The translations under genes were made by a program, and so were the position numbers. Below are positions 23,760 through 47,978 of a stretch of 64,000 nucleotides of DNA, piece after piece (the stretch's first letter is position 1; the number at the start of each line of letters is the position of its first letter). The notes under the pieces are model-generated. The model did not search any database. It saw nothing but the letters and a program-made list of their open reading frames with translations, and was not told where the DNA came from. This stretch comes from an uncultured delta proteobacterium (GTDB lineage: Bacteria; Desulfobacterota; Desulfomonilia; Desulfomonilales; Desulfomonilaceae), in assembly GCA_963789265.1 (NCBI GenBank), contig CAWBKB010000001.1, forward strand, positions 384,001 to 448,000, in the 5' to 3' direction.

Positions 23760-23912
23760 GATCACAGATTTTCCATACGATTGCTACGCTGTATGACGTG
23801 ATGAGGCATTGCCGGCGCGACCACTCGTGCTACTTGACCCATGGGAGTGTCTTAGAGAATTAGATTCGTTTGCCAACAATTAAGTATGGGGGCCCGGAAT
23901 TATTCCGGAATT
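23760..23912 (-). mobile_element. Partial RAYT-derived miniature element
   Basis: Minus strand encodes MGQVARVVAPAMPHHVIQRSNR (RAYT N-terminus); ends in AATTAAGTATGGGGGCCCGGAATT repeat. Confidence 0.75.
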
Positions 23913-24017
23913 ACTCGACAGGGGGCCATTTGATGGGTGACCCCTATGCTTGAATAGGCCCAAGGAATGTCTTACAGTACAACATAGATTAATTGGTATT
24001 CCAGGTGGGGATCGTGA

Positions 24018-24290
24018 ATGTTAAACGTGTTGGGTTTTATGTCTAGCGTCGGTTTTCTTGCTGATAACGGCGCTCGTATTGGCAACGAACGATAGTTGGG
24101 TAGTTATCAAGGACAAGAATGGGATTTGCAAGTTTATTGAGGCGCAAAAAAAAGATACCCAAGACTATCGCAGGGCGGTTCAAAAACAAAGAAGAGGCAG
24201 AAAAAGCAAAAGTCAAGGAATGTGCAGGGAGGGGTCCACCTCAGCTCTTTAACAGTATAGGTGGGGTATCCATGAAGCAGAGGTAGCGAC
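24018..24290 (+). pseudogene. Small secreted protein, frameshifted
   Basis: WVVIKDKNGICKFIEAQK continues as KIPKTIAGRFKNKEEAEKAKVKEC if one A is removed from the A8 run near 24147-24154; the 5' end is also out of frame. Confidence 0.5.
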
Positions 24291-24320
24291 AAGGTGGCAA
24301 TAATAAGCAGGGAGGCAAAA

Positions 24321-24740
24321 ATGGAAGACTTTATTCAACTTGCAACGGAAAAGCTGGGTGTTAGCGACGAATCAGTTAAGTCGGCGATGGGGGCCATTCT
24401 GGGCCTGGTGCAAAAGAACGCGGACGGAGAAGATTTTCAGCAACTCTTAGATAAGCTTCCCGGCGTTGAAGGGCTGCTGGACAATTCCGGCCAAGTGTCA
24501 CCCGAACAAGGCGGTGGAGGCTTGCTGTCAGGTCTGATGCGTGGCGTGGGGGCTATGATCGGCGGGAAAGCTGGGGACGCGCTGGAAGCCGCCTCAGCGC
24601 TGAAGGAATCCGGAATAGGGCTTGATAATCTGGGAAGTCTGGTGACAATGTTCACCGAATTTGCGAAGGAGAGGGCGGGATCGGAACTCGTAGACAAGAT
24701 TCTTGCCGATGTGCCGGGGCTGCCGGGTCTAAAAGAGTAG
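24321..24740 (+). CDS. DUF2780-like protein
   Basis: GGAGG RBS; LGVS...AMGAILGLVQ...LPG, Gly-rich linker typical of the family. Confidence 0.75.
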   Translation: MEDFIQLATEKLGVSDESVKSAMGAILGLVQKNADGEDFQQLLDKLPGVEGLLDNSGQVSPEQGGGGLLSGLMRGVGAMIGGKAGDALEAASALKESGIGLDNLGSLVTMFTEFAKERAGSELVDKILADVPGLPGLKE

Positions 24741-24752
24741 CTTGCGAGGCCC

Positions 24753-24915
24753 GGAATTCCGTGTACACCATACTCATTTCCCTTGCCGCGTGTGGCGATG
24801 AGATCGTCTACTGGTCTGTCGACGATGTTCGTGGTCCGAGTCACCCCGGTTTCGGTAGGAGCTTCCAACGACCAATGATGACACTGAGAATTAAGTATGG
24901 TGTCCCCAGAACTCC
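24753..24915. mobile_element. Miniature element bounded by the same ~26-bp inverted repeats
   Basis: GAATTCCGTGTACACCATACTCATTT ... AATTAAGTATGGTGTCCCCAGAACTC; interior differs from the other copies. Confidence 0.7.
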
Positions 24916-25417
24916 CGAGTCCAAGTCCGAACCGGAGAAACCTGTGACGGATTCCCCGTACACGGCTTCCCGAGCCTCATGACCGACCAGGGGACGTTGA
25001 CCAAGAACCGCATTCACATCAAAAACACCGGTGCAACGTTCGATTTGTATGCCACCCCGACGCCGGTGCAAAGCGGGGCTTTTGAACTCCTGGGCGTTTC
25101 ATCAGGATCGTAGCCACTAACTACCTCGCATCTCTCGACTCAAATCAATCATAAACAAACTCTTACGTAAATCACCTTTTCGAACTTCCGTTTAAACTGC
25201 TGCAAATATCGCCCGGATCATGAACCGGGCATGATGTGTCGTTTCTCAGCATTCCTGTAAAGACTGTTCTCGATATCTGGAAACAACGTTAGCAGGTAGA
25301 CTCGCCCTTTAAGCGACTCAAGCTGCACCTACTCCTCTTTTGCTCATCTTCAGTCAATCTGGTGAAGAGCCACACAGGGGCCGTAAAGATACCTTATCGT
25401 GACTACCGCCGGGAAAG

Positions 25418-26389
25418 TCACCCTTCAAAGATTTTCTTTGGGTTTTCAACCATTATTGTGCGAATCTGCTCATCGGTCACTCCCGACTCCTTGAGCTCGG
25501 GTATGATATTTTTGAAAACATGTGTCGGATACCAATTTCCAACTATTTCTTTGGGCAATATTACATCGCCACCAAGCCAGTTGAGCACCACATCGTGTGA
25601 AAACATCAACTGGCTCGCATATCCCATAGAGATTAGTCCTACGATGCAACCCTTCCTGAAATTATCCGGGCCTGCCGACCACAACTCAGCGTCGAGACCG
25701 AGTCGATCAAAGGCCAGATTTACACCCTTATCAAGAATCCTGGCATGGTACTTTAGATCGGCAGATCCCCCTGCATGACCAATCGCGATTTGCTTTGGGT
25801 TGGCACCCTCGGATACAAGTATATCAACTTGTTCAGGGCCCATGGTTCCCGCCTCTGTATGAGTTATGATCGGAATTCCCGTTCTCTTTTGTGCTCTTCC
25901 TGCCGCCTGAAGGGCCATCTGTTCATAATCTGTGATGGCATTCAACCCTGTGGCCACTTTAATAACACCTGCCTTTATTCCGGTATCTCCTATACCTAGC
26001 TCAATTTCTTTGGCGAACAACTCGGTCAACATTTCAACCCCATTCGTAAACAGACCTTGGAACTTGAAATAAGGGGAACCACCTTGACCTTCAGTATAAA
26101 GCCCTGTCGAGCACACAATATTCACGCCGGATTTTTGAGACACTTCGCTGTAAAACTTCGGATCTCGTCCAGAATCAGATGGTGTCGCATCAACATAGGT
26201 CTTTACGCCACACGCTTTTATGTCGTCCATAGCTTTTAGAGCGATTGCAAGAGCCTTTTCTTTGTCTTGTGGCTTGCTTGTGTGCGCATACCAACCGGCG
26301 TATCCAAATTGTAGATGTTCATGCATCAGTGTTATTCCCATTTCATCTGACGAAACAGGACCACACACGGTGTTAATCATCTTAGTCAT
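25418..26389 (-). CDS. Phosphotriesterase-family (PTE/Php) amidohydrolase
   Basis: GITLMHEH, GVIKVA, THT, IGH and SHD metal-ligand motifs. Confidence 0.92.
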   Translation of the reverse strand: MTKMINTVCGPVSSDEMGITLMHEHLQFGYAGWYAHTSKPQDKEKALAIALKAMDDIKACGVKTYVDATPSDSGRDPKFYSEVSQKSGVNIVCSTGLYTEGQGGSPYFKFQGLFTNGVEMLTELFAKEIELGIGDTGIKAGVIKVATGLNAITDYEQMALQAAGRAQKRTGIPIITHTEAGTMGPEQVDILVSEGANPKQIAIGHAGGSADLKYHARILDKGVNLAFDRLGLDAELWSAGPDNFRKGCIVGLISMGYASQLMFSHDVVLNWLGGDVILPKEIVGNWYPTHVFKNIIPELKESGVTDEQIRTIMVENPKKIFEG

Positions 26390-26500
26390 TTCCTTTCTCC
26401 TTTTTTCGATAACGATCGAAGATTGGCATTTCGGGAATATTGCATCCCAAAATGATGCTCAATAGCTACGCTGAACAATCTGCAATAAAGATTACTTTGC

Positions 26501-28420
26501 TTATGCTTGCATCCCCGCAAGATAGCCTGTTTCCAGGGCTTCCATGACTTTTCCCACTTTAGCGGCATCACCTACAGTGATCACTGTATAAGGCTTGCCA
26601 TCAAGCTCTTTTTTAAGATCGTTATTGGGCTTGCTACCCGAAGCCACAACAACTGTTTCGGAACTTATTGTCTCAGTTACACTGTCCTTAACTACAACCA
26701 CTCCGTCCACCATCACATCCTTAACTGTAGTATTCACAAGGACTCGTACCTTATTTTTCTCTAAGTCCTGTAACAAAGCCATTCTGTTTATGTTTGGCAC
26801 CTCCGTTGCGATCTCGGACATCATTTCAACCAACGTGACTACCTTACCGTGGTTTGCCAGATGGTTGGCCGTCTCAGCGCCGACCATGCCTCCTCCAATT
26901 ACGACAACCTTAGCGCTAACCGCAACTTTTCCGGCAAGTACTGTATAAGCATGAACAACGTTAGGCTTGTCAACACCCGAGATTTCAGGCAAGACCGGTC
27001 TGCCGCCAGTTGCTAGAATTACGACATCAGGTTTTTCGGAATCAATTAGTTCAGGTGTAACTTCGGCGTTCAGAGTAACATTGACTTTCATCTTGTCTAA
27101 TTGGCCAATTTGCCAGCCGACGAAGTTGCCAATCTCTCCCTTGTTGGGTGGTACGCTGGCCAGGTAAAATAGTCCGCCTAAATGGCCTTCCTTTTCATAC
27201 AAGCTTACTTTGTGACCTGCTTTCGCAGCGGTGATGGCAGCCTCCATTCCAGCAGGGCCGCCCCCTATGACCAAAAGTTTTTTCTTGACGGCCGCCGGTT
27301 TTATAGCTAATTCAGCCTCTTTGCCAAGTGTTGGATTCAAAACACATTTGATCGGTTGATCGGTAAATAGTATACCAATGCACCCCTCGTTACAGGCGAT
27401 GCAAGGGCGAATTTCGTCAAATTCGCCCGCCGCAGCCTTCTTAGGGAACTCCGGATCGGCCAGCGATGCCCTACCCATAGCAACAAAATCAGCCTTGCGA
27501 CCCGCAATAATGGAATCTGCCACGAAAGGATCATTAATTCGGCCAACAGTAATAACCGGCATACTGATGACCTTCTTTACTTCCTCCGCATAACCAGCGA
27601 GCCAGCCATGGGGAGTGGACGAAGCGGGTACAATTTTGTCTGCGCTGGCATAAACACCGCAGGAGACATGCAAGACATCGATCCTCGCTCGTTCCAATAA
27701 AATGGCTATCGCTTTCGTATCCTCTATAGATCTACCGCCGGGAACGAATTCGTCGCAAGAAATGCGGAAACCCAACCCGAAATCGTTACGAGTTTTAGCC
27801 CTGATGTTTGCTACAACCTCGAGCGGGAACCTCATTCTATTCAAAAGATGCCCACCATACTTGTCGGTTCTCTTGTTTGAGTATGGAGACATAAATTCTG
27901 CAATGAGATATCCGTGGGCTCCATGTATTTCAACACCATCAAATCCAGCTTTTTGTGCTCTTAGAGCGCAATCGCCAAATTTTTCCACCATCCTTTCGAT
28001 GTCGTCAATCGTCAGTTCGTCCGGCAATTCTTGCATTGCCGGGCATGGAATCGGGGAAGGAGCCAGCGGTGGGCACATGGTAATCAGATGGCTCGTCTGT
28101 CTCCCGCAATGATATATTTGTGCGAATATTTTGCTTGCGTACTGATGGACTCTTTTCGTCAACTCTGAATGACCTGCAATCTGGCTATCATTCCACAGCC
28201 CCGCGACACAAGAGAAGCCTTTGCCCGTGGGGTCTATCGCATAATCTTCAGTGATGATCAGCCCCCAGCCGCCTTTTGCTTTGGCTTCATGGTATGCTAT
28301 GTACCTTTCTGTAGCCGTGCCATCCTGGTTGCAGTAATCCGTTACCATTGGGCTTACAACCAGTCTGTTAGGAATTTCCACCTTTCCAATCTTCATGGGA
28401 CTGAACAGTTTTTTAAACAT
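26501..28420 (-). CDS. NADH:flavin oxidoreductase (Old Yellow Enzyme / 2,4-dienoyl-CoA reductase-like, Fe-S + FAD)
   Basis: GFDGVEIHGAHGYL, NKRTDKYGG, CIACNEGC...C, two GGG dinucleotide-binding motifs. Confidence 0.93.
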   Translation of the reverse strand: MFKKLFSPMKIGKVEIPNRLVVSPMVTDYCNQDGTATERYIAYHEAKAKGGWGLIITEDYAIDPTGKGFSCVAGLWNDSQIAGHSELTKRVHQYASKIFAQIYHCGRQTSHLITMCPPLAPSPIPCPAMQELPDELTIDDIERMVEKFGDCALRAQKAGFDGVEIHGAHGYLIAEFMSPYSNKRTDKYGGHLLNRMRFPLEVVANIRAKTRNDFGLGFRISCDEFVPGGRSIEDTKAIAILLERARIDVLHVSCGVYASADKIVPASSTPHGWLAGYAEEVKKVISMPVITVGRINDPFVADSIIAGRKADFVAMGRASLADPEFPKKAAAGEFDEIRPCIACNEGCIGILFTDQPIKCVLNPTLGKEAELAIKPAAVKKKLLVIGGGPAGMEAAITAAKAGHKVSLYEKEGHLGGLFYLASVPPNKGEIGNFVGWQIGQLDKMKVNVTLNAEVTPELIDSEKPDVVILATGGRPVLPEISGVDKPNVVHAYTVLAGKVAVSAKVVVIGGGMVGAETANHLANHGKVVTLVEMMSEIATEVPNINRMALLQDLEKNKVRVLVNTTVKDVMVDGVVVVKDSVTETISSETVVVASGSKPNNDLKKELDGKPYTVITVGDAAKVGKVMEALETGYLAGMQA

Positions 28421-28444
28421 CGGCCATTCCTCCTTAGATAGGGA

Positions 28445-28635
28445 TTACTGTTTCTTCGGGAACACGCCTGTAGGATCGCATTCTTCTTTAAAAATTCGAA
28501 TAAGCTCAGGCGCAGGTGATTCTGTCTCGTACACATTGGAAGCAATCTTGAGATCCCAACCAGTGTTTTCCTTGATCTGTGCCACCGTTGCTCCAGGGTG
28601 ATAGGAAGCGAGATACATTTCTTTGTTTCGGGCAA
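28445..28635 (-). pseudogene. 3' fragment of a CoA-transferase beta subunit (glutaconate CoA-transferase-like)
   Basis: KEMYLASYHPGATVAQIKENTGWDLKI...ETESPAPELIRI...DPTG. Confidence 0.7.
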
Positions 28636-28760
28636 AAACAGAGTCATCAAGATCGCTATAATGTAACCTACCGTGCATAAAGCTATTCCCGTGGCCAGGT
28701 TGTACTTGGCCTCAAGCGACCCGAGGACAAACGGGGCAAACGCTGAAAGTAAGAACATTG
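28620..28760 (-). pseudogene. 3' fragment of an MFS transporter
   Basis: SAFAPFVLGSL...IAILMTLFLPETK, the classic MFS TM11-12 'PETK' ending. Confidence 0.65.
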
Positions 28761-29889
28761 TCAAGACGATTGATTCGGTCAACAAAGGCCGCGTTTGGCT
28801 GCTGTTCCCCTTGGCCCGCCACTCCGGCACCAGTCCCGAACGGCGCTCGTACGCCATGGAGAAAGGGAACCAAAGTCAAAGGGATGTTCATGATGCTCCC
28901 CAGCGTCACGCTTGGACCTACCGCGCGTCTCACAGCCCCATCCCAATGGAACGCGATTCTATACGGAAAAACTCCCAGAAATTGTTCTTGTCCTCATTCC
29001 TCGATCTGTTGCACGAATAACTATCGGAACACTGATTAAGATGAGACAGGTTAACCTCAAAGCCGCGAGCCACCCGCGAAGCCTCCTTGGGCAAGACTCA
29101 CATTTTGGCGTCTGCTCTGCCCCCTAAGTCTGCCTCGGCCAGATCGGCGGTAAGTGGATGCAGCTAGTCTGACATTCGCCAAGATCATGGCCAATGGAAA
29201 CGTGATTTGACGCGGGGCGCTAGCTTAAGCAGTAGAGTAGGGGTTGACAGAATATTTGTCAATAAAAAAATAGATTGGAGACAAATTATGACCCGGCAGC
29301 CCCTGATGATTTGAACGTTGTCTCCCGCCTGTCATGCGGGAAAACAAACGGACCGTCAATGACTGAGCGGTCTAGACTGATGCTTGCCGACCGGCTTCTT
29401 GGGAATCAGAGGCTCCATCTTCCGCCATTGCTCATCGTCAGATACACGACTCGTTTGCTAACCGGCCTTACCTCCGGCGAGACAGATATGTCAAAAATAT
29501 CTGGAACCTAAAGCCTTCAAACTAGCCTGATCTCAAGTGCTTAACAGTAATGAACGGTTTTACAATCGGCTGTGGGGATTACAGGCAATAGAATATATAT
29601 CAGTGACTAAAATAACTTGACAATGATTATGGCGGCCCGCTATAGAATGGTCACATTGATCAAAAATTGCTTTGGATTTGATGATCTCTGTCGCAAATTA
29701 ACCGGAGGAAGACGAGACTTGGAGGTCGTTGGGCCAATATCTGGAAGTTCGACCAGAATGCTGTGTCTGAACCACTTTGTTCTGGCGTGATCCCTACTGA
29801 GGTTTTTTTTCGATTCCGAAAAGTGGAGCAGTTGACATTGTTCCGGTTTTTTTGACAGCGATTCCCAGCTTAGAAAGGAGAATCGGACT

Positions 29890-31464
29890 ATGAACATTAC
29901 TCTAACACCGATGCGATTTCTCGACAGAGCGTCAACTCTATTCGGATCCAGGACTGCGGTGGTTTGTGAAGGTCGACGCTGGACTTATACCGAGTTCAAT
30001 GAGCGGGTAAACCGCCTTTCCAAAGCGCTGGTGCGGCTGGGGGTACGACCGGGGGATCGGATAGCCTTTCTGGGCTACAATTCACATCAGCTTCTGGAAT
30101 GCTACTACGGTATCCCCAGGATGGGTGCCGTCCTTCTGCCGCTAAACATCAGGCTGATTGCATCGGACTTCGAATATATCTGCAATGACTCAGGGCCGAA
30201 TGTTGTGTTCATCGACCCGGAGTTGCTGGACAAGATCGAGCCTATCCTTTCAAAGATTCCGTCAGTCAAGGGATTTTACCTTCTCGAACCGATGGGAAAC
30301 CCGCCAGACTGGATTACCGGCCAGTACGAGGATCTCCTTGAGGGCGCTTCTCCCGAGCTCGTGTGCACCTCCGCCAACTTCCCGTTCCAGGAAGACGACA
30401 TGGCGGAACTGTTCTACACGAGCGGTACTACAGGGTCCCCCAAGGGGGTGATACTAACTCACCGCAATTTGTATCTACACGCTCTGTGCGCGATGGCCAG
30501 CATGCCCGTCGCGGAAACGGACATTCAACTGCATCTGATCCCGCTGTTTCACGTGAACGGATGGGGTACTCCTCATTATGTGACGGCCAAGGGTGGAGCC
30601 CACGTAATGGTGAAGAAATTCGATCCCGCTGGGGTCCTCGATATTGTCCAGAAGGAGAGGGTTACGAGGTTCTTCATCGTGCCGACAATGGTAACCGCTC
30701 TTCTCGAGCATCCTGCATTCTCCTCTTACGACAAGTCTAGCGTGAAAGAAATTCTCATAGGCGGGGCGCCGCCGCCAACCGGAATGTGTGCTCGGGTGGA
30801 GGAAGCCTTTGGCTGCGTGGTACACGGCGGATTCGGCATGAGCGAAACCTGCCCTCTCATCGCGTTGCCTGAACTGCCCCCCGATCTCGAACGTGAGACT
30901 TCTCGGCATCGTGCTCATGAAACATGGGGTTTCCCTCTTGTGGGTGTGGAATACAAGGTGGTTGATTCCGAAGGTGCTGAGCTGCCGTGGGACGGGAAAA
31001 CTGTGGGCGAATTGTTGGTGAGGGGCGACATGGTCATGAAGGGTTATCTGAATAAGCCTGCGGAGACCCAAAAGTCGCTCAAGGACGGATGGTATCACTC
31101 GGGCGACCTCGTTTCGATGGGACCAGACGGATCTTTATATATCCGAGACCGTATGAAAGACATCATCATCAGCGGGGGCGAAAACATCTCCTCGCTTGAG
31201 ATAGAGCAGGTCCTCTATTCTAATCCGGAGATCCTCGAGTGCGCTGTTATAGCCAAGGTAGATCCGAAATGGGGTGAGATACCGAAAGCGATAGTTGTTC
31301 TTCAACCGGGTTCAAAGTTGACCTCGCAGGACATCGTGAACTTTACAAGGGAACGAATGGCTCACTTCAAGACTCTGAGAGAAGCAGAAATAGTGCCGGA
31401 GCTGCCTAAAGGCGGCACAGGTAAAATACAGAAATCTGTGCTTCGCAAGATGTACGGCAATTAG
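29890..31464 (+). CDS. Long-chain fatty-acid-CoA ligase (AMP-binding)
   Basis: YTSGTTGSPKG, FGMSET, GWYHSGD, DRMKDIIISGGEN, GTGKIQK; AAGGAG RBS. Confidence 0.95.
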   Translation: MNITLTPMRFLDRASTLFGSRTAVVCEGRRWTYTEFNERVNRLSKALVRLGVRPGDRIAFLGYNSHQLLECYYGIPRMGAVLLPLNIRLIASDFEYICNDSGPNVVFIDPELLDKIEPILSKIPSVKGFYLLEPMGNPPDWITGQYEDLLEGASPELVCTSANFPFQEDDMAELFYTSGTTGSPKGVILTHRNLYLHALCAMASMPVAETDIQLHLIPLFHVNGWGTPHYVTAKGGAHVMVKKFDPAGVLDIVQKERVTRFFIVPTMVTALLEHPAFSSYDKSSVKEILIGGAPPPTGMCARVEEAFGCVVHGGFGMSETCPLIALPELPPDLERETSRHRAHETWGFPLVGVEYKVVDSEGAELPWDGKTVGELLVRGDMVMKGYLNKPAETQKSLKDGWYHSGDLVSMGPDGSLYIRDRMKDIIISGGENISSLEIEQVLYSNPEILECAVIAKVDPKWGEIPKAIVVLQPGSKLTSQDIVNFTRERMAHFKTLREAEIVPELPKGGTGKIQKSVLRKMYGN

Positions 31465-31477
31465 ACTGGGAGACGAC

Positions 31478-32732
31478 ATGCAGGCGGTAGGTAGTTATGC
31501 GGGAAACGGTGAGCGTGACATTGGAGACACTAAGGTATCCAGCACCAGATCGCGGATTTTGTGCGCGGCCGAAGAGGTCATGTCAGAGAAAGGGATTGCC
31601 GGATCATCCATTTCGGAGATAGCTCGAAAGGCTGGAGTGGCCGATTCCGTCATCTATCAGTACTTCAAGGGGAAACAGGATCTCCTCTTTTCTGTGCCCG
31701 GAGAGAGGATGAAGGAGGTTTTGGCCATCCTGGAGGAACAGCTCACCGGTATTCAGGACGTGCAGAGTCAGTTGCGAAAGATGATCTGGTTTCATTTGAG
31801 ATACAACGACACCCACAGAGGTTATGCACGACTCTTACTCCTGGAGTGCCGCTCATCCAAGGCTTTTTACGATACACCTGCCTATTCGTTGGTCAGGGAG
31901 TACGCGGGCATTCTCTCTTCTATAATCGAGCGGGGCATCAAGGAAGGCAAGTTTCGAGCGGACGCTCAAACCAAACTCGTCCGAGACGTCATTTTGGGGA
32001 CGTTAGATATGGAAACCGTAGGGTCTCTTGCAAGCGGCGAGATACCGGACAGTGAGGCGGATTTCGAAGACATTATGACCCTGGTGGACGCCATGATCGG
32101 CCTGAAGGAGCCTCAAGAGACCGGGCGAGTCAATAGGATGGACGAAATTATCAATGCCGCCCAGAAAGTGTTTGCGGAGAAGGATTACCGCCGGGCCAGG
32201 ATCTCAGAAATAGCCAAGCTGGTCGGCATCTCGGACGCTACTGTCTACGAGTACTTTCGGAACAAGGAAGACATACTGTTGTCCCTCGCGGAAAAGCGCT
32301 TCGACACCTACTTGCTGGATGTTTCAAACGTATTCGAAATCAAGAACCCGGTCCGCAAGCTTCGCAGGTTGATCAAGTACCATTTCGGCATCTTCCTCAG
32401 TCAACACGAATTCTTGAAGATCTTTCTGTTGCAGCTCCAGCTCAATAGATGCTTCTACGGGTCAAAAGCGTTCGACGCGTTCCGCTCGTACCTGCAGCGT
32501 GATTGAGAATGTAATCCAAGAGGGAAAAGAAGCGGGTATTTTCTCATCAGCGGTCAACAAACGGGTCTTCAGAAACATGTTTCTGGGTGCATTCAGCCAC
32601 TTGGCGCTGCGTTGGCTCATCGTGCGCGAATCCACCGACACTGACAGGATGGAGGAGATAAATGAGGTAACTGACCTGCTCGCGTCGGCTGTGACAGTGC
32701 AGCCGGTTCGAGACCAGCCGGCACAGGATTGA
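31478..32732 (+). CDS. Tandem-domain TetR/AcrR regulator, +1 frameshift at 32498
   Basis: Two HTHs (ISEIARKAGVADSVIYQYF, ISEIAKLVGISDATVYEYF); the C-terminus continues in ORF 32499-32732. Confidence 0.85.
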
Positions 32733-32777
32733 CTCGACTGAATTCGAAGATAGGGCTTCAGAAATTCCGGGTACAAG

Positions 32778-33329
32778 GAATTCCGGGTACACCATACTCA
32801 ATTCCCTTTTGAAGTTCCTTTTGGTACGGGTTTCCGCATGACGAAAATAGGCCGTAATTCTGCGATTGCCTCGCTGTATGACGTGATGAGGCATTCTCGG
32901 AGCCACCCCTCGTGCTGCCTGACCGAAAGGCGTGCCTCATACCAACTCCCATAGCTAGAAAGCTACAACGAAGCATGAAAACGTCAGTAGGACCGGCATC
33001 TTGCCGGTCGGTAACAGGACGTTTTCATAGGATTTGCTTTCGCACAAGTGGCACCGTGTTTCCGGTAGGGGCGGGTTTCAAACCCGCCCTTACATATCGT
33101 CATGCCCGCATAGGCGGGCATTTGTAGGGGCGAATGGCATTCGCCCTGGGCGACCGCCGGTCGCCCCTACAGTCCCCGGATCGAAGTCCGGAGTGATCTC
33201 GCGGAACGCGGGATAGGCAGGACGCCTGCCCCACCATATCCTCGCAGGGTTATCACTTGTTTGATGGCGCACTGGTATTAGAGAATAAGATTCGTTTGTC
33301 AACAATCAAGTATGGTGTACCCGGAAGTA
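32778..33329 (-). mobile_element. RAYT-derived miniature element interrupted by a nested insertion
   Basis: Same ends and interior as 33923-34131, with 32940-33277 inserted. Confidence 0.8.
32940..33277. repeat. Nested TACCA...TGGTA element carrying a cluster of GTAG-type REP palindromes
   Basis: GTAGGACCGGCATCTTGCCGGTC (32987), GTAGGGGCGGGTTTCAAACCCGCCC (33065), GTAGGGGCGAATGGCATTCGCCC + GGGCGACCGCCGGTCGCCCCTAC (33124-33170), GGCAGGACGCCTGCCCCAC (33216). Confidence 0.75.
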
Positions 33330-33359
33330 TCAGACGCTCATTTCTTTCGTCCAGGATGC

Positions 33360-33815
33360 TTACGGCTCCTTTCCTATTATCGCCCTGGCGGCCAAAGCGG
33401 TGATTATCCCGTAGGGCAGATTTATCAGCAGCAGGTAGACTGTGAACACCGGCCCCCCAAACTGAAGCCCGAAATACCCTGCGCCCCTCATCGGCAGGAA
33501 GATCAAAAACAACGCCAGCACCGGTGCGAGGAAGTATAGAAGACCGAACAGGTAGAGTCGCTTCCAGGCGGTCTTGATAAGGAGCCCGAACGGGATGCCC
33601 CACAGCCCGCCCCAGAAGAGCGGCCTGTATACATCCGGCGCTTTCAAGGAGATCGGGCCCTTTACCCCGAATATTGCGCTAACCCCGAACCCAAACAGGA
33701 TGTGGCTGAAAAGGACCACGGCCAGTCCGCCTACAACCCCCGCCGTGAAGCAGATTGCCACCCGTTGTATCAGGGTTAAACCTTTTCCCATCACGTTCAA
33801 ACCTTTTTCGTCCAT
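33360..33815 (-). CDS. Small 4-TM membrane protein
   Basis: Hydrophobic ORF, YRPLFWGGLWG motif, AAGGGG RBS. Confidence 0.75.
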   Translation of the reverse strand: MDEKGLNVMGKGLTLIQRVAICFTAGVVGGLAVVLFSHILFGFGVSAIFGVKGPISLKAPDVYRPLFWGGLWGIPFGLLIKTAWKRLYLFGLLYFLAPVLALFLIFLPMRGAGYFGLQFGGPVFTVYLLLINLPYGIITALAARAIIGKEP

Positions 33816-33922
33816 GTTCAAACCCCCTTTATTGGTGCGCCACAAGAAGGCCTTGCAGAAGGTTGCCAGCCCATATACCATGCTCATACGGTAAACTGCG
33901 AAAACCTCTTAATTATCTATAG

Positions 33923-34131
33923 GAATTCCGGGTACACCATGCTCAATTCCCTTTGGAAGTTCCTTTCGGTCCGGGTTTCCTCATGACGAAAAAAGGTCGG
34001 CAGTCTGCGATTGCCGCGCCGTATGACGTGATGAGGCATTCTCGGAGCCACCGCTCGTGCTACTTGACCCAAAGGCATATCAGAGAATAAGACTGGTTTG
34101 TCAACAATTAAATGTGGTGTACCCGGAACTC
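33923..34131 (-). mobile_element. Complete 209-bp RAYT-derived miniature inverted-repeat element
   Basis: Ends GAATTCCGGGTACACCATGCTCAATT / AATTAAATGTGGTGTACCCGGAACTC; interior encodes GQVARAVAPRMPHHVIRRGNRRLPTFF. Confidence 0.85.
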
Positions 34132-34142
34132 CCATTTTCTTC

Positions 34143-34187
34143 TTGACACTCGGCCGGCAAAGTTTTACACTTCGTAATATGTCGAAT
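34143..34187 (+). promoter_or_regulatory. sigma70 promoter and ArsR operator-like palindrome
   Basis: TTGACA(34143)-17 nt-TACACT(34166); TTCG-TAATATGT-CGAA overlaps the predicted transcription start. Confidence 0.7.
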
Positions 34188-34556
34188 AATAGAACCGTAA
34201 ACCTGCAGCGATGCGCCGACATGTTCAAAGCGCTGGGCAATTCCCATCGACTGGCCATCTTTCTCAGGCTCATCTCCTGTTGCCCTCCGGGCACCCAGTG
34301 GGTGGAAGGGCCTGAATCGCGGCGGGTCGTGGGTCAACTGGGTGAAGAACTGGACATTGCCCCGTCGACGCTTTCTCACCACATCAAAGAACTTCGCACA
34401 GCCGGACTCATCCGTGCAGAAAGGCGAGGCAAACAAATCGAATGCTCGGTCGATGCGAAGGCGCTGGACACCTTGATTGATCTTTTGGCAGGTCAAAGAT
34501 CGGATGATTCACCTGCGGGTCAGAACCGTTGCCGTACGTGCGAAGAGGCGGACTGA
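34179..34556 (+). CDS. arsR: ArsR/SmtB regulator
   Basis: FKALGNSHRLAI, SCC pair, PSTLSHHIKELRTAGLI, ERRGK; upstream of arsM. Confidence 0.88.
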   Translation: MSNNRTVNLQRCADMFKALGNSHRLAIFLRLISCCPPGTQWVEGPESRRVVGQLGEELDIAPSTLSHHIKELRTAGLIRAERRGKQIECSVDAKALDTLIDLLAGQRSDDSPAGQNRCRTCEEAD

Positions 34557-34717
34557 AGCTCCGATCATCAGGTCACTTCACTCCTCAAAATTCCTGAACA
34601 TAGGTAGCACAGGTTTCTGTCCGGCCTACTCACGTGGATACGTTGGTCCGCTTGAAGGGTCGTGTCAGCGCAGAGGAGTTCTTTATCTTTATCACCCGGA
34701 AAGGGGGACGATCACAA

Positions 34718-35245
34718 ATGCTTTCAACAAGTGCAGTATCAAAGGACCTGGGCCGCATGATGGAACTGGCTCAACTGGGATTCCATTGCAGCGACATACT
34801 TGTCTTCATGGGCCTGGAGGCTCAGGGGAAGGTCAATCCCGATGCCGTTCGACTTGCGTCTGCTCTCGCCGGCGGTGTCGGCTCGTCCGGAGATATCTGT
34901 GGGGCATTCACAGGAGGTGCTTGTCTTCTCGGACTCTATGCCGGCAGGGGCGTATCCGACGAAGAAGAGGACCCCAGGCTCCGCATGATGATCTCAGAGC
35001 TATTGGACTGGTTCTCGGCTGAGCAGGAAAAGCGATACGGCGGGATTCATTGCAGCGAAATCACCGAGGATGATCCTCAAAACATGCCTATGAGATGCCC
35101 TCAGATTGTCGCGGCTGTTTACCGCAGAGTAAGGGCAATCCTTGACCAAAATGGCTTCGACTGGAAAGTTGGACCAAAGCCGGTGAGACGAAGGGAAACA
35201 GCGTCCTCTTGTAGCGCTGCCTGCCCGGTTGCAGCGAGGCTGTGA
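34718..35245 (+). CDS. C_GCAxxG_C_C family putative redox protein
   Basis: GFHCS, ICGAFTGG, GIHCSEI, RCPQIV motifs. Confidence 0.88.
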   Translation: MLSTSAVSKDLGRMMELAQLGFHCSDILVFMGLEAQGKVNPDAVRLASALAGGVGSSGDICGAFTGGACLLGLYAGRGVSDEEEDPRLRMMISELLDWFSAEQEKRYGGIHCSEITEDDPQNMPMRCPQIVAAVYRRVRAILDQNGFDWKVGPKPVRRRETASSCSAACPVAARL

Positions 35246-35274
35246 CCAAAGCGCTCATTTGATAGGAGTACCAG

Positions 35275-36079
35275 ATGAAAGATACAGAACCGGTTGAAAT
35301 TAGGGAGTCCGTGAGGAAAAAATACGGTAAAATAGCGCATCAGAGGCCCTCATGCGGGTGCGGGCCCCCAAGCTGCTGCGGAGGCCCTGCATCCGGACCT
35401 GACGGTTCGTCCGCAATCCGGGTGGGATATTCGCGGGAAGATTTAGAAACCGCGCCATTGGGGTCCGAATTGGGGCTTGGGTGCGGCAATCCGCAGGCCG
35501 TGGCCCATTTGCAGCCCGGAGAAATCGTTTCTGGATCTCGGTAGCGGAGCCGGATTTGACAGTTTTCTGGCGGCCAAAAAAGTAGGACCAACCGGACATG
35601 TCATCGGCGTGGACATGACCCCGGAAATGCTGGACAAAGCGCGGGACTTCGCGAAAAACGATTCGTACCCGAATGTGGAATTCCGACTGGGAGAGATCGA
35701 AAACCTCCCGTTGGCGGATGCCAGTGTGGACGTGATCATTTCCAATTGTGTGATAAATCTTTCCATAGACAAACTGCGTGTCTTCCGCGAGGCATTCCGC
35801 GTTTTGAAGCCGGGAGGCCGACTGGCCATTTCCGACATAGTCGCTATTGGAGAATTGCCCGATAATATCCGTAGGGATCTCGATCTGTATGCAAGTTGTA
35901 TTTCAGGAGCCATCAGCCTTGCCGAAATTGAAGGGATGCTTCAACAATCGGGGTTCCAGGACATACGTATTCGATGCAAAGACCGGAGCGGCGAGTACAT
36001 TAGTCACTGGGCCAAAGCAGACAATATCAAGGATCTGATTGCCTCGGCGTCTATTGAAGCGGTGAAGCCAACGCAGTAA
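35275..36079 (+). CDS. arsM: Arsenite methyltransferase, +1 frameshift at 35528-35530
   Basis: SCC N-terminus, LGLGCGNP, then LDLGSGAGFD, GVDMTPEM, ISNCVINL, SCISGA in the next frame. Confidence 0.9.
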
Positions 36080-36253
36080 CCGGAGAGACTTCCAAACAAA
36101 AAGATACGGTGCAGGAGCGGAACGCGTGGCACGGTATGTAAAAGCACCTTTTACAGCCAGGCCGTAAGCCCGCTCCTGCTCGGCCAGCCGAAAAGCAGGG
36201 AACAGTCTCAGGGAAAATGGGCGGCGACAGTTGAAAAGATGGCCCTGGAAGCC

Positions 36254-36301
36254 GGCAGTCCCAAGGGGTTTAGAACCCCTGTCTCCGCCGTGAGAGGGCG
36301 G
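36254..36301 (-). repeat. tRNA-Glu 3'-end duplication (att site) 1
   Basis: 48 bp matching 47904-47951 with one mismatch. Confidence 0.9.
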
Positions 36302-37883: not shown

Positions 37884-38042
37884 TTCGGGGACACCGCACT
37901 TAATTTGGGTTACGATCCGCTAATTAAGGAAGGTGTCCCCAAATCTCTCAGATCTCATTTTTGTGCAGCCATCATTGTACAAGAATTCCGGGTACACCAT
38001 ACTCAATTCCCTTTGGGGGTTCCTTTCGGTTCAGGTTTCCGC
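37884..38042. mobile_element. Minimal 60-bp inverted-repeat pair plus a truncated left half of the RAYT miniature
   Basis: TTCGGGGACACCGCACTTAATT...AATTAAGGAAGGTGTCCCCAAAT (37884-37944); GAATTCCGGGTACACCATACTCAATTCCCTTTGG from 37983. Confidence 0.7.
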
Positions 38043-38154
38043 CTATGGAATACTCTGGCAAGCTCGTTTTCCTGTCTAGTTATGAAATCATCACGCCCGC
38101 GGGGCCTGCCGGTTCGTTCGTGGAGACGCAAGCTCTGATGTCGAGGTGATATGC

Positions 38155-38203
38155 TGGCAGTCCCAAGGGGTTTCGAACCCCTGTCTCCGCCGTGAGAGGG
38201 CGG
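38155..38203 (-). repeat. tRNA-Glu 3'-end duplication (att site) 2
   Basis: 49-bp perfect match to 47903-47951. Confidence 0.92.
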
Positions 38204-44335: not shown

Positions 44336-44383
44336 TGGCAGTCCCAAGGGGTTTCGAACCCCTGTCTCCGCCGTGAGAGGGCG
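44336..44383 (-). repeat. tRNA-Glu 3'-end duplication (att site) 3
   Basis: 48-bp perfect match to 47903-47950. Confidence 0.92.
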
Positions 44384-44638
44384 ACGAACAAGTCAATAAT
44401 TTCAAGATCTTTCCCAATAACCCCAACAATTTCAGTCCCTGACAATCCCCCCCGGTCTCTGGCAATCCCTGCCAGTTTCTCCTGGTGAGAGCAAAATGTG
44501 AGCATTCTCCAGAGGTCTCTTACCCGTTTTTGCCTTGCCCCCCCCACAATTCCATTCGACATCTCCTGTTAGACCATCACCCTCCCCGGAGTAACTGCCA
44601 TGTGAGTCCAACAACTGACATTCTGCGACAATATTAAT

Positions 44639-45400: not shown

Positions 45401-45839
45401 GATGACTTCTCCTTGCGAAATACCTGATGGCCCCTTTTACTAGAGACGCTATACGTTGATGCTTTCCGATTCGTCAAGTGCTTGACCACCACGAACAAAT
45501 GCTCTGTAGAATGGCGGCCGGATAGCAGACAGCTGTCTCTAAGAAGCCATTATGCCGAGGGAGACGCAGATCGCCCCCAAGAATCTGGCGGGGGGGGCAA
45601 GAAAATTGGTTATATTCCGATGATAACCCTCTACTCTCGGCCTTTAGACCGACATATAAATGTGGCATGGAGCTTTCCGAACGCCCTTTGACAGGGGAGG
45701 AGACGGGATGTTGAATATTAACCTTATGACCAATGCTCGAGTGTGGCAAACGGCAATGGGCAACAAGAATATGAATCCCTCTGGGGATTATTTTGATCTT
45801 AATGAAAAAGAAAAAGGGGTCAGAAAAGGGGTCATGAAA

Positions 45840-45928
45840 AAGGGGTCAAGTCTCTTCTTGACTCATATTGTGCGAGTCGCTCGCTGTGAGGCTGTTCGAA
45901 AGTGAGTCAAGAGTAGATCTGACCCCTT
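45840..45928. repeat. 89-bp miniature inverted-repeat element, copy A
   Basis: AAGGGGTCAAGTCTCTTCTTGACTCA...TGAGTCAAGAGTAGATCTGACCCCTT; 87/89 identical to 47508-47596. Confidence 0.9.
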
Positions 45929-46386
45929 CCCTGGTCGGATTTCACGAATCGGGCATGGCCAAACATTTGTGGAAGGCCATAAGAATACTAGATAGTGAAT
46001 TGGCGAAAACTGCCGAAACAATGAATCCGGAGTCACTCGTAGATGCTTCTGTCAAGACAGAAGACTTGATAGAAAAATGTCTCAGTGAGGCTCGTAGCGC
46101 TACATTCGCCTTTCGTCGCAAGCAAATCAATGAATATACTTCTCTAGCCCTAAGAATGGCGTCCATTGCATCACTCAGTCTAGCATTTTACAAAGCAGGT
46201 TTGTCGTTGCCGGCCAGCCTCCTTTCTGGCATGACCGCAACTAATTTTCTTGCCAATAACAGGCCCACCGAATCTCGGGTACGTGGGATCGAGAATAGGA
46301 TCACGGATTGGATCCAGTCTAACAAATTTAGATCCTTGTCAACACATCTGTGGTGGATTGAAAAATGGAAGAAAACTGGTCACTAA
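45929..46386 (+). pseudogene. Probable 3' fragment of an AT-rich hypothetical gene
   Basis: Open frame starts at the edge of the repeat without a convincing RBS; no family recognised. Confidence 0.4.
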
Positions 46387-46736
46387 AATTCGAAATCAAT
46401 AAGTTGATAGAGTGAACAATAGTCACTGAAACGGACGTAATAGACTGTGAGGCAATCAGTGCGCATAAAACGTTTGTCGAAACAGGTAAACAGAAAGGCT
46501 GTGGACAAAGTTGTCCAGGACTCTGTCCACAGAAAATCCGCACCAAAACTGGACCAGACAACTTGGACACCATTTTAGGAAGTGACCAGGAGAAAAAAAT
46601 TATCCACACCAAAAAGCATTATCGGATGTGTAACGCCTTGTAACTTTCTTGAAGCATTCTGCCGGCCAACTAGGGTGTCCACTCTGTCTGCATTGACCGC
46701 AAAGCATCAGAATTCCTTCTAATAAAACTTACCTTT

Positions 46737-47447
46737 CTATTTTAGCGGGTTCAAAAATGTTGTCCTCAATTCTTCGGAAAAAATACCAGCTAAGTAGACC
46801 GAAATCATAGTTTCTTCTGCTTTTTTATTGTGATGTATCAGAAGCACTAATCCGATAATTAAGAAAACGATAAGAGCAAACCAAATTGTGATTGTGAGTT
46901 CCCGGTACGGATAATCCTGCCAAGATTCCCCCGTAATTACACATCCTAATATGAACCCTAATATTATGGCTATTATCCAGTTTTCGCCAACATACATATA
47001 GCGCCGTCTAGTCCTTCCCCATTCTCTTAAAGCCTGCCCAGGATCAGAATATTGAATCCATACAAAAAAAGGATCGAAGCGTCTCTTCTTCTGAGATTCT
47101 AATAGACTATCTTTTATTGCCTGAGGTGTATGGCCCAGTCTCAGCCTTATTTCCTTTGTTACGGTTTTCCGCATTTCGTCTTTGCCATGAAAATACTGAA
47201 AGACTATTATAGATATTACTCGAATAATCTGGCCTACAGAACTCAGTCCTACTCCTATGGCAGCGAGCCGGAGCATTGTTGCCGTGGGATCACAGCCAAG
47301 AATAATGATCGCATACCCATACTCAGCATATTCGATAGAGAGCTTTGAATTTAGAACGAACATGGTGCCTGCCGCAATCAACGCGAAGACAATTCCGCTT
47401 ACTGTGCTGTCGAATATGATATGTTTATCGTCCAACATTGCCCCCAC
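46737..47447 (-). CDS. AT-rich hypothetical 4-TM membrane protein
   Basis: 236-aa ORF with two pairs of hydrophobic helices; low GC. Confidence 0.65.
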   Translation of the reverse strand: MGAMLDDKHIIFDSTVSGIVFALIAAGTMFVLNSKLSIEYAEYGYAIIILGCDPTATMLRLAAIGVGLSSVGQIIRVISIIVFQYFHGKDEMRKTVTKEIRLRLGHTPQAIKDSLLESQKKRRFDPFFVWIQYSDPGQALREWGRTRRRYMYVGENWIIAIILGFILGCVITGESWQDYPYRELTITIWFALIVFLIIGLVLLIHHNKKAEETMISVYLAGIFSEELRTTFLNPLK

Positions 47448-47507
47448 TTATTGAAGTGACGGTTCGCCATCTACTGGCGCCCAGCATGGTAAACCCAAAG
47501 AAAAGAA

Positions 47508-47596
47508 AAGGGGTCAAGTCTCTTCTTGACTCATATTGAGCGAGTCGCTCGCTGTGAGGCTGTTCGAAAGTGAGTCAAGAGTAGATCTGCCCCCTT
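47508..47596. repeat. 89-bp miniature inverted-repeat element, copy B
   Basis: Direct repeat of 45840-45928. Confidence 0.9.
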
Positions 47597-47902
47597 CCCA
47601 CTAACTATTTTCATCATGGAAACTCCTTCCCTCCCGTGCGGACCGCGTTTACAACTTCCCGGGGCCTTTGACCGCCACTTGAGATGTGTCGGCCCTTCAT
47701 TATTGGCTTCCAATAGCCTGCGCGTGACAAATGTGTCACGAAGGAATCGGAGGTTGTCCGCTGCTTTCCCACCCCACTGCCGTCCCAATCAATATTTGCA
47801 TAAAAATCTTTATGGTTGACAGGGTTTTGCCTCCAAGAAATTTCCCGCTAGTCAGAATATTGTATCGGTCCTACCCCCACTGTGTGACAAGGAAATAACT
47901 CT

Positions 47903-47978
47903 TGGCAGTCCCAAGGGGTTTCGAACCCCTGTCTCCGCCGTGAGAGGGCGGTGTCCTAGGCCTCTAGACGATGGGACC
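47903..47978 (-). tRNA. tRNA-Glu (anticodon CTC)
   Basis: GGTCCCATCGTCTAGAGGCCTAGGACACCGCC-CTCTCAC-GGCGGAGACAGGGGTTCGAAACCCCTTGGGACTGCCA; 76 nt, encoded CCA. Confidence 0.97.

Follow-up and report, generated by a model that had tools for sequence, protein, structure and literature searches.

This work concerns a gene bracketed by two small elements in a 64,000-nucleotide (nt) stretch of DNA, hereafter the window, from an uncultured delta proteobacterium of the family Desulfomonilaceae. The genome (G000) comprises 6.06 Mb in nine contigs and is 95.6% complete; the window is C1:384001-448000, and coordinates without a contig prefix are window positions. Near its middle a gene for a membrane protein of 151 amino acids (aa), referred to as the cargo, lies between E1 and E2, two copies of a miniature element derived from a RAYT-like Y1 transposase unit. 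The order along the DNA is TetR block, E1, cargo, E2, ArsR module, with no leftover DNA. Below, G001 is the closest relative of G000, L052 is a locus carrying a full-length RAYT-like transposase, and genes that are "read as" something were named from a reading of the sequence, not from a scan. The features at the locus are the following.

32761-32776, + strand: extra partial end motif GAAATTCCGGGTACAA, in tandem with the E1 start
32777-33330, + strand: E1, RAYT-like Y1 miniature (left arm 32777-32935, right arm 33276-33330; repeat families D3, D5, D6, D8, D10)
C1:416933-416823, - strand: transposase remnant of E1 (tblastn with the full-length L052 RAYT, E=6.8e-6)
32936-33280, no strand assigned: nested palindromic repeat cluster of about 340 nt, in E1 only
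33331-33920, - strand: cargo module, with promoter region, gene and 28 nt of native 3' flank (homology in G001 and G004 from 33331, in G019 to 33920)
33360-33815, - strand: cargo gene, an open reading frame (ORF) for the 151-aa membrane protein
33922-34135, + strand: E2, intact 214-nt miniature (tblastn with L052 RAYT residues 4-45, 62% identity, E=5.6e-11)
34136-36079, + strand: ArsR / C_GCAxxG_C_C / methyltransferase module (homologues align from 34134-34136)

Two miniatures as borders of three modules

The original prediction, made from the letters of the window, was of two same-orientation copies around one gene, and this arrangement stands. E1 (32777-33330) and E2 (33922-34135) represent one element in direct orientation and are 90% identical over 156 nt plus 88% over 51 nt; when the nested insert is left out of E1 the alignment contains 187 matches and 23 mismatches (89% identity). 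The cargo is the sole credible gene in the 590 nt between them. Within G000 the two elements are mutual closest copies, and their divergence (0.118, Jukes-Cantor) is lower than the synonymous divergence (dS) between G000 and G001. Each copy is delimited by inverted termini, GGAATTCCGGGTACACCAT... on one side and ...ATGGTGTACCCGGAA on the other, which form terminal pairs of 26-30 nt that are 80-85% complementary.

The main observation is that these elements coincide with the limits of homology. At all four element ends homology to relatives stops within 1-4 nt. On the left, G001 is colinear with the window over 25234-32760 at 88-95% nt identity and stops at 32760, the same base at which the contigs of relatives in two runs (X3 and X4) stop aligning. 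Past the equivalent of 32760, G001 runs into a gene read as acyl-CoA dehydrogenase-like, without orthologue in G000, and it has neither cargo nor element at this site. In the middle, cargo homology spans exactly 33331-33920, E2 starting at 33922. On the right, ArsR-operon homologues in G069 (80%), G077, G019, G066 and G065 begin aligning at 34134-34136, directly past E2 and about 10 nt before the -35 box; the X3 and X4 contigs align from 34133. Since the homology ends match the element ends, the elements are seams between three unrelated modules, i.e. the TetR block, the cargo and the ArsR operon. At none of the four ends does the interrupted sequence resume beyond the element.

Could this arrangement be a chimeric join caused by repeats? 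The window does contain at least one single-base indel error, at 32491. Logan contigs of four runs (X1-X4) were compared with the stretch; the parts uncovered in X2-X4 are uninformative. All four E1/E2 junctions are bridged by short-read contigs of X1 with 0-1 differences, and because these contigs tile the four junctions the locus is no misassembly, although X1 is possibly the source sample and hence no independent test of the assembly. We regard an artefact as extremely improbable.

Only the first 34 or so and the last 12 or so transposase codons survive in E1 and E2. In E2 the transposase start lies on the minus strand (ATG at 34078-34076) and about 34 codons are kept; the left arm of both elements retains, in another frame, the last ~12 codons (KPGPKGTSKGN*, by sequence inspection). 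The HUH (NHVH) and catalytic Y motifs are deleted: of the 232 residues of the L052 frame, E1 and E2 align to residues 4-45 only. Both copies are short and non-coding, lie between inverted repeats and derive from an autonomous element by internal deletion, and so qualify as miniature inverted-repeat transposable elements (MITEs). E2 folds as a whole into a long hairpin via its termini (-37.9 kcal/mol, z=-3.4; 2 of 200 shuffles fold equally well). A single element end folds no better than shuffles (z=-0.56 to +1.25), with no significant local hairpins; the single end motif is non-palindromic and, on inspection, the element ends carry no GTAG/CGTC tag.

The nested cluster (32936-33280) consists of what we take, on inspection, to be GTAG-tagged palindromes of the canonical REP-like kind. 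In each of five genus relatives, parts of it have matches at dozens of places, and it produces depth spikes in all four runs. Two KLPHWR-type RAYT-like genes in G000 (L004 and L005) may be the cognates of these palindromes.

The element family and its full-length relatives

That E1 and E2 are "RAYT miniatures", as originally predicted, is upheld by two observations: the same inverted 18-mer ends flank PF01797 genes elsewhere, and tblastn finds stubs of such genes in E1 and E2. The 18-mer end, GAATTCCGGGKACACCAT, was recovered at 123 or more loci and is identical across many phyla, its hosts including Desulfobacterota, Planctomycetota, Armatimonadota, Nitrospirota, Methylomirabilota, Elusimicrobia and others. 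In at least 6 of 80 fetched loci (L052, L062, L058, L118, L098 and L068) inverted copies flank an open frame of 170-252 aa that begins M..ARVV.PG.PHH[VI]TQRGNRRQ.TFF. The two frames that were scanned, L052 and L118, match PF01797 (Y1_Tnp) at 49 and 46 bits for a cut-off of 23. Many of the remaining fetched loci contain inverted motif pairs 60-300 nt apart or tandem motif arrays. Repeated 1.3-kb motif spacings in one Armatimonadota genome were discarded, the segments being non-homologous.

The full unit measures about 0.75-0.95 kb and comprises one transposase gene between inverted ends of 21-27 nt. Copies of it are 92% identical over 957 nt (L052 vs L062) and 99.3% identical over 866 nt (L068 vs L095); since full units are multi-copy in some genomes, the unit behaves like an insertion sequence (IS) and not like a single domesticated gene. 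The 18-mer is identical, while the transposases that it flanks retain 45-70% identity across the aligned N-terminal stubs. REP-type sequences are normally lineage-specific. A literature search with the 18-mer end gave two irrelevant primer matches only.

When the full-length transposases were compared with G000 by tblastn, E1, E2 and three other copies matched over the N-terminal 30-77 residues only. Further remnants in this genome are as follows.

C7:233339-233563, strand not stated: transposase remnant, residues 3-77, the longest in G000
C1:578722-578871, strand not stated: transposase remnant, tblastn stub
37982-38176, + strand: third element copy, left end, with about 53 C-terminal codons (tblastn with L068 residues 175-227, E=3.3e-5)

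The only full-length tblastn matches in G000 are two unrelated DnaA_C-type Y1 genes at about 35% identity; no full-length cognate transposase was found by tblastn in this 95.6% complete genome. A Pfam scan of the ORFs of E1 and E2 returned zero matches, and blastp against the six Y1 genes of G000 reached only E~0.5. Homology was established instead via the full-length relatives. On these alignments, E1 and E2 are internal-deletion derivatives of a RAYT-like Y1 transposase unit. As they lack the HUH and tyrosine motifs and G000 lacks a full-length cognate gene, both are inert now.

The 21-mer end (up to 4 mismatches) occurs at 52 sites in G000 and at none in the reversed genome, so the termini are not due to chance. 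The sites split into a T-type (GGGTACACC) and a G-type (GGGGACACC) and are clustered genome-wide: the average is about one motif site per 115 kb, while 7 of the 52 fall within 14 kb at this locus. A conserved insertion target was looked for at the 52 sites and none is visible.

Does the shared orientation of E1 and E2 argue for a composite? On contig C1, 14 of the 15 high-scoring pairs obtained by BLAST with E2 are in + orientation (11 of 12 elements by manual count), at 0.36-1.83 Mb. The cumulative GC skew of this contig climbs up to about 2.0 Mb, which places the whole element stretch on one replichore. Strand bias is known for Y1 single-strand transposition, and IS608 and ISDra2 reportedly show a bias for the lagging strand. 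With the family biased to one strand on one replichore, the common orientation of E1 and E2 is the default and no evidence of a composite.

The cargo gene elsewhere and the origin of the bracket

The cargo protein has four predicted hydrophobic helices (by inspection) and no Pfam family in a Pfam scan. Its 2758 homologues are mostly 151 aa long and named "hypothetical"; in a protein atlas it falls into unnamed clusters, DUF6789 appearing only at 0.84. G000 carries a single copy. Among the 69 other genomes of the family searched, which include six of the same genus and five of genus g14, close homologues (80-85% aa, 88-91% nt) were found in seven: three of the six and four of the five, respectively. 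The cargo segment (450-580 nt) is the only block within +-8 kb that is common to the eight genomes of the two genera. At the cargo loci of G004, G001 and G019 (+-8 kb) and of G005 (3.5-kb contig) there is neither a neighbour gene of the window nor an element copy. The original prediction had named cargo synteny in element-free relatives as the result that would tell against capture; what the relatives show is the cargo elsewhere, without elements.

In G001 the cargo sits between blocks syntenic to C1:2268464-2269533 and C1:2271295 onward of G000, next to an alcohol dehydrogenase gene (read in the C1:2268464-2269533 block) and a DUF302-like gene. The matching 1.76-kb interval of G000 lacks the cargo and contains instead an ORF read as MscS-like. 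Between G000 and the other genomes the dS of the cargo is 0.15-0.23 and its non-synonymous divergence about 0.09-0.10, even across genera; three genes syntenic between G000 and G001 have a dS of 0.16-0.20, close to that of the cargo. The cargo flanks vary widely across 80 metagenome loci, the next ORFs in several of them, L243 for example, being read as a DedA-type membrane protein and a pyridine-nucleotide disulfide oxidoreductase. From these comparisons we conclude that the cargo is a horizontally mobile gene, missing from G000 at the locus where G001 has it.

A conserved non-coding sequence of about 150-200 nt (AAATCG.AGCAATTT...CCGAACTAATTGACGGCTC...) adjoins the cargo in three relatives (G019, G004 and G005). 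The same AAATCG. non-coding sequence is present in G000 at C1:2269743-2269949, in the interval corresponding to the cargo locus of G001.

One route by which the cargo could have come to lie between E1 and E2 is composite mobilisation: a cognate Y1 transposase supplied in trans would have acted on the two outer ends, left in E1 and right in E2, and E1-cargo-E2 would have moved as a single-stranded unit. The cargo fills the space between the elements exactly, E1 and E2 are each other's nearest copies, and the absence of any element scar at the locus where G001 has the cargo is as expected for seamless Y1 excision. In run X3, a relative whose ArsR region is 95.6% identical has no E2 upstream, hence E2 arrived late though already diverged from E1. 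Full-length units are demonstrably mobile elsewhere, and another genome, G066, brackets the same gene with the same element family (see below). Conversely, no empty site exists, the DNA left of E1 and right of E2 being contiguous in no relative searched: in G001 TetR is followed by the acyl-CoA dehydrogenase-like gene, and the ArsR operons of five genomes have other upstream DNA. A site keeping a single element, which the original prediction suggested looking for in relatives, was not found either, G001 being devoid of both cargo and element. None of the 87 other cargo loci contains the same composite, a cognate transposase is missing from G000, the bracket of G066 is built from another end subfamily, and no composite of this type is reported for REP/RAYT elements in the literature searched.

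Circular junctions, also proposed as a check, were sought in the contigs of the four runs; neither a circle nor a deletion joint was seen, a test of low power because rare forms are invisible to contigs. Two "goes back" joints (34071->33293 and 33980->33290) were considered as circles and rejected: they are other copies of the family with different internal lengths. Given the E1-E2 divergence of 0.118, any composite event is old. Of the original proposal, the coincidence of homology ends with element ends is upheld; an HUH-based system of gene capture stays conjectural. We consider composite mobilisation unlikely, and one-step composite transposition less likely than recombination seams.

Among the 87 cargo loci besides that of G000, clear end motifs were found in G066, which belongs to another genus, and a weak one in L218. 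A "motif" at L262:11563 was dismissed as the apparent start of an ORF read as a GntR-family regulator. In G066 a 250-nt miniature that retains an N-terminal piece of the transposase comes first; after it come 220 nt containing a remnant of a 94-nt MITE family, the cargo, 31 nt and an end motif, and then a gene read as an IS1634-like transposase. The orientation of miniature, cargo and end motif relative to one another is that of G000, and the end motif starts within about 4 nt of the G000 3' junction; native cargo 3' flank was not found beyond this element. The ends are G-type in G066 and T-type in G000, and the internal sequences reach no more than ~69% in a gap-rich alignment. The two brackets were therefore probably built independently, or the ends were replaced. 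G065 has a solo end motif at the position where E2 ends in G000, 17 nt upstream of the ArsR -35 box. Motif sites occur about once per 115 kb, which makes these junction coincidences improbable by chance; they indicate either that insertion favours such gene borders or that the elements travel, and recombine, with the modules.

The first of these possibilities leads to a second route: the cargo moved by unrelated means and the miniatures inserted later beside it, independently, so that the bracket would be a by-product of local density. It would reflect a preference of the family for gene borders (after stops, upstream of promoters) in repeat-rich islands. The clustering of end-motif sites, 7 of 52 within 14 kb, fits such accretion, as do the genome-wide orientation bias and the different subfamilies that occupy the same positions in G066 and G065. 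The other MITE remnant between element and cargo in G066 shows stepwise accretion. At C1:576227-578908, two ORFs read as Ada/AlkA-type and MGMT-type are flanked by an end motif and, 2.6 kb away, by a right-hand element stub that contains the N-terminal remnant of a transposase. The left of these, a solo end motif located upstream of the Ada-like ORF, has kept its place in G001, whose synteny ends just past this ORF at another small repeat; stable simple insertions thus exist. Against this route, sequence interrupted by a simple insertion should resume past the element, which it does at none of the four ends, and the 52 sites show no conserved target sequence. We judge it somewhat unlikely.

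Two further bracketed regions of the window had been noted in the original prediction, and both are real. The DUF2780 gene is bounded by two copies of the element family, one partial and one small but complete; the second repeat family, at 45840-47596, is distinct from that of E1 and E2.

23778-23900, + strand: partial element copy left of DUF2780, with a transposase N-terminal remnant and a degenerate right end (tblastn stub at 23777-23866, E=5.5e-7)
24294-24740, strand not stated: DUF2780 gene, bracketed by two element copies
24753-24915 (end approximate), + strand: small complete element of a related subfamily, right of DUF2780 (end motifs C1:408754(+) and 408894(-))
45838-45931 and 47506-47599, strand not stated: 94-nt MITE-like palindromic repeats, 98% identical, bracketing two ORFs

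In G004 the DUF2780 segment (23946-24735) lies inside a gene-scale mosaic without end motifs. The left edge of G001 synteny (25234) was tried as an exact seam with the 24753-24915 element and rejected, 320 nt of unique DNA lying between. The 94-nt family has about eight full copies in G000; in both G064 and G066, remnants of it lie upstream of the cargo gene. Two further 20-kb regions with elements (C1:1822-1842 kb and C7:310-330 kb) have nothing, or a single 950-nt block, in common with G001, so that a lack of synteny is usual in this setting. The elements reside in mosaic islands that are specific to the strain, and many other small repeat families are also found at module borders.

Some additional features of this neighbourhood were recorded. 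The double-TetR gene (31478-32732) has an apparent frameshift at about 32491 that is probably a one-base assembly error: X1 lacks one base at 32491, the X3 and X4 relatives lack one at 32492, and in G001 the frame is intact (444 aa). The methyltransferase gene (35275-36079) is likewise split between two frames. About 1.2 kb of the window (30095-31309), in the AMP-binding (acyl-CoA synthetase) gene, is missing in G001. Copies of the 49-nt 3' end of the tRNA-Glu(CTC) gene (47903-47978, - strand), 96-100% identical, are present at 36253-36301, 38155-38203 and 44336-44384; spread over 11.6 kb upstream, they look as if islands had integrated one after another at this tRNA. Among the scanned ORFs between these copies there was no integrase.

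The explanation that we put first, tentatively and with slightly less than even confidence, is that the inert miniatures served as recombination seams, or portable homology, between the modules of a mosaic island. E1 and E2, on this reading, are old and non-autonomous, having arisen by deletion from a small IS200-like (RAYT-like, Y1/HUH) element, and recombination at element copies, or between them, would have joined the modules. Portable homology or cleavage sites may have been what the elements provided, e.g. in a double crossover; alternatively, a circle with one element and the cargo could have integrated beside a resident element. Several points weigh against these seams as a product of recombination. 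No parental or reciprocal recombination products were found, and the relatives compared are at species level only. At only ~89% identity over ~210 nt, E1 and E2 are a poor RecA-type substrate today. An element copy is absent from the G000 interval that matches the cargo locus of G001. The presence of other repeat families at module borders means that the E1/E2 family need not be causal. Finally, because their end subfamilies differ, the brackets of G000 and G066 are probably independent, a situation that insertion preference or active capture would explain no less well than passive seams.

A broader version of recombination at element ends would extend it to the whole family: the inverted ends of this cross-phylum Y1 family may be portable cleavage and joining sites that shuffle single-gene modules among Desulfomonilaceae, the same 151-aa gene having been bracketed at least twice. 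We hold this generalisation to be doubtful. Whichever route applied, the locus is a clean natural E1-gene-E2 construct with exact seams, and candidate cognate enzymes in other genomes make the idea bench-testable.

Comparison with known systems

The common view is that REP/RAYT elements are gene-less residents which multiply nothing but themselves. REPINs are high-copy, have one cognate RAYT in their genome, and consist of REPs that each form a palindromic hairpin tagged GTAG/CGTC. The present family has in common with the REPIN/RAYT systems (TnpA-REP, REPtron; Nunvar 2010, PMC2817692; Bertels & Rainey 2011, PMC3116915; Bertels 2017, PMC5581495; Quentin 2018, PMC6006769) a Y1/HUH gene flanked by inverted short repeats, and gene-less repeat doublets that fold into long hairpins and are dispersed in intergenic DNA. 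It differs from them in several respects: a single end is non-palindromic and without GTAG tag, the copy number is low (52 motif sites) with no cognate gene in G000, the full unit is multi-copy in some genomes and IS-like, the miniatures retain gene stubs, and the 18-mer is identical across phyla. In PMC6006769, REPtrons are said not to move as units. The literature searched, PMC3337134, PMC3479197 and PMC8266576 among it, yielded no proposal that REP/RAYT pairs capture genes.

Elements of the IS200/IS605 group have no terminal inverted repeats and carry subterminal hairpins at each end; PATEs are their non-autonomous derivatives. The family of E1 and E2 resembles them by its Y1 transposase (PF01797), its strand bias, its deletion derivatives and the absence of any visible target duplication. 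It differs from them by its clear terminal inverted repeats of 21-27 nt and by the lack of significant subterminal hairpins. A Y1 family with an 18-nt end identical across many phyla found no relevant match in the literature search.

The arrangement of the locus also resembles that of two other groups. The Tn3-derived TIME-COMPs and the MITE-flanked integrons of Acinetobacter depend on DDE transposases and leave target duplications. As in these MITE-pair composites, two direct miniatures bracket a passenger in a new context; the difference is that the chemistry here would be HUH/Y1, with unit movement hypothetical. IS26 translocatable units, as well as Campbell-type integration at a resident repeat, yield repeat-cargo-repeat with the gap exactly filled. 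The same pattern is seen here, where no circle, resident single-element site or active enzyme was found. Should pairs of miniatures indeed be able to transport or swap a gene, gene-scale mosaicism would be driven by HUH/Y1 enzymes as well as by DDE elements; and if the ends do act as portable joining sites, the family would be an HUH-based counterpart of the MITE composites or of the IS26 translocatable units.

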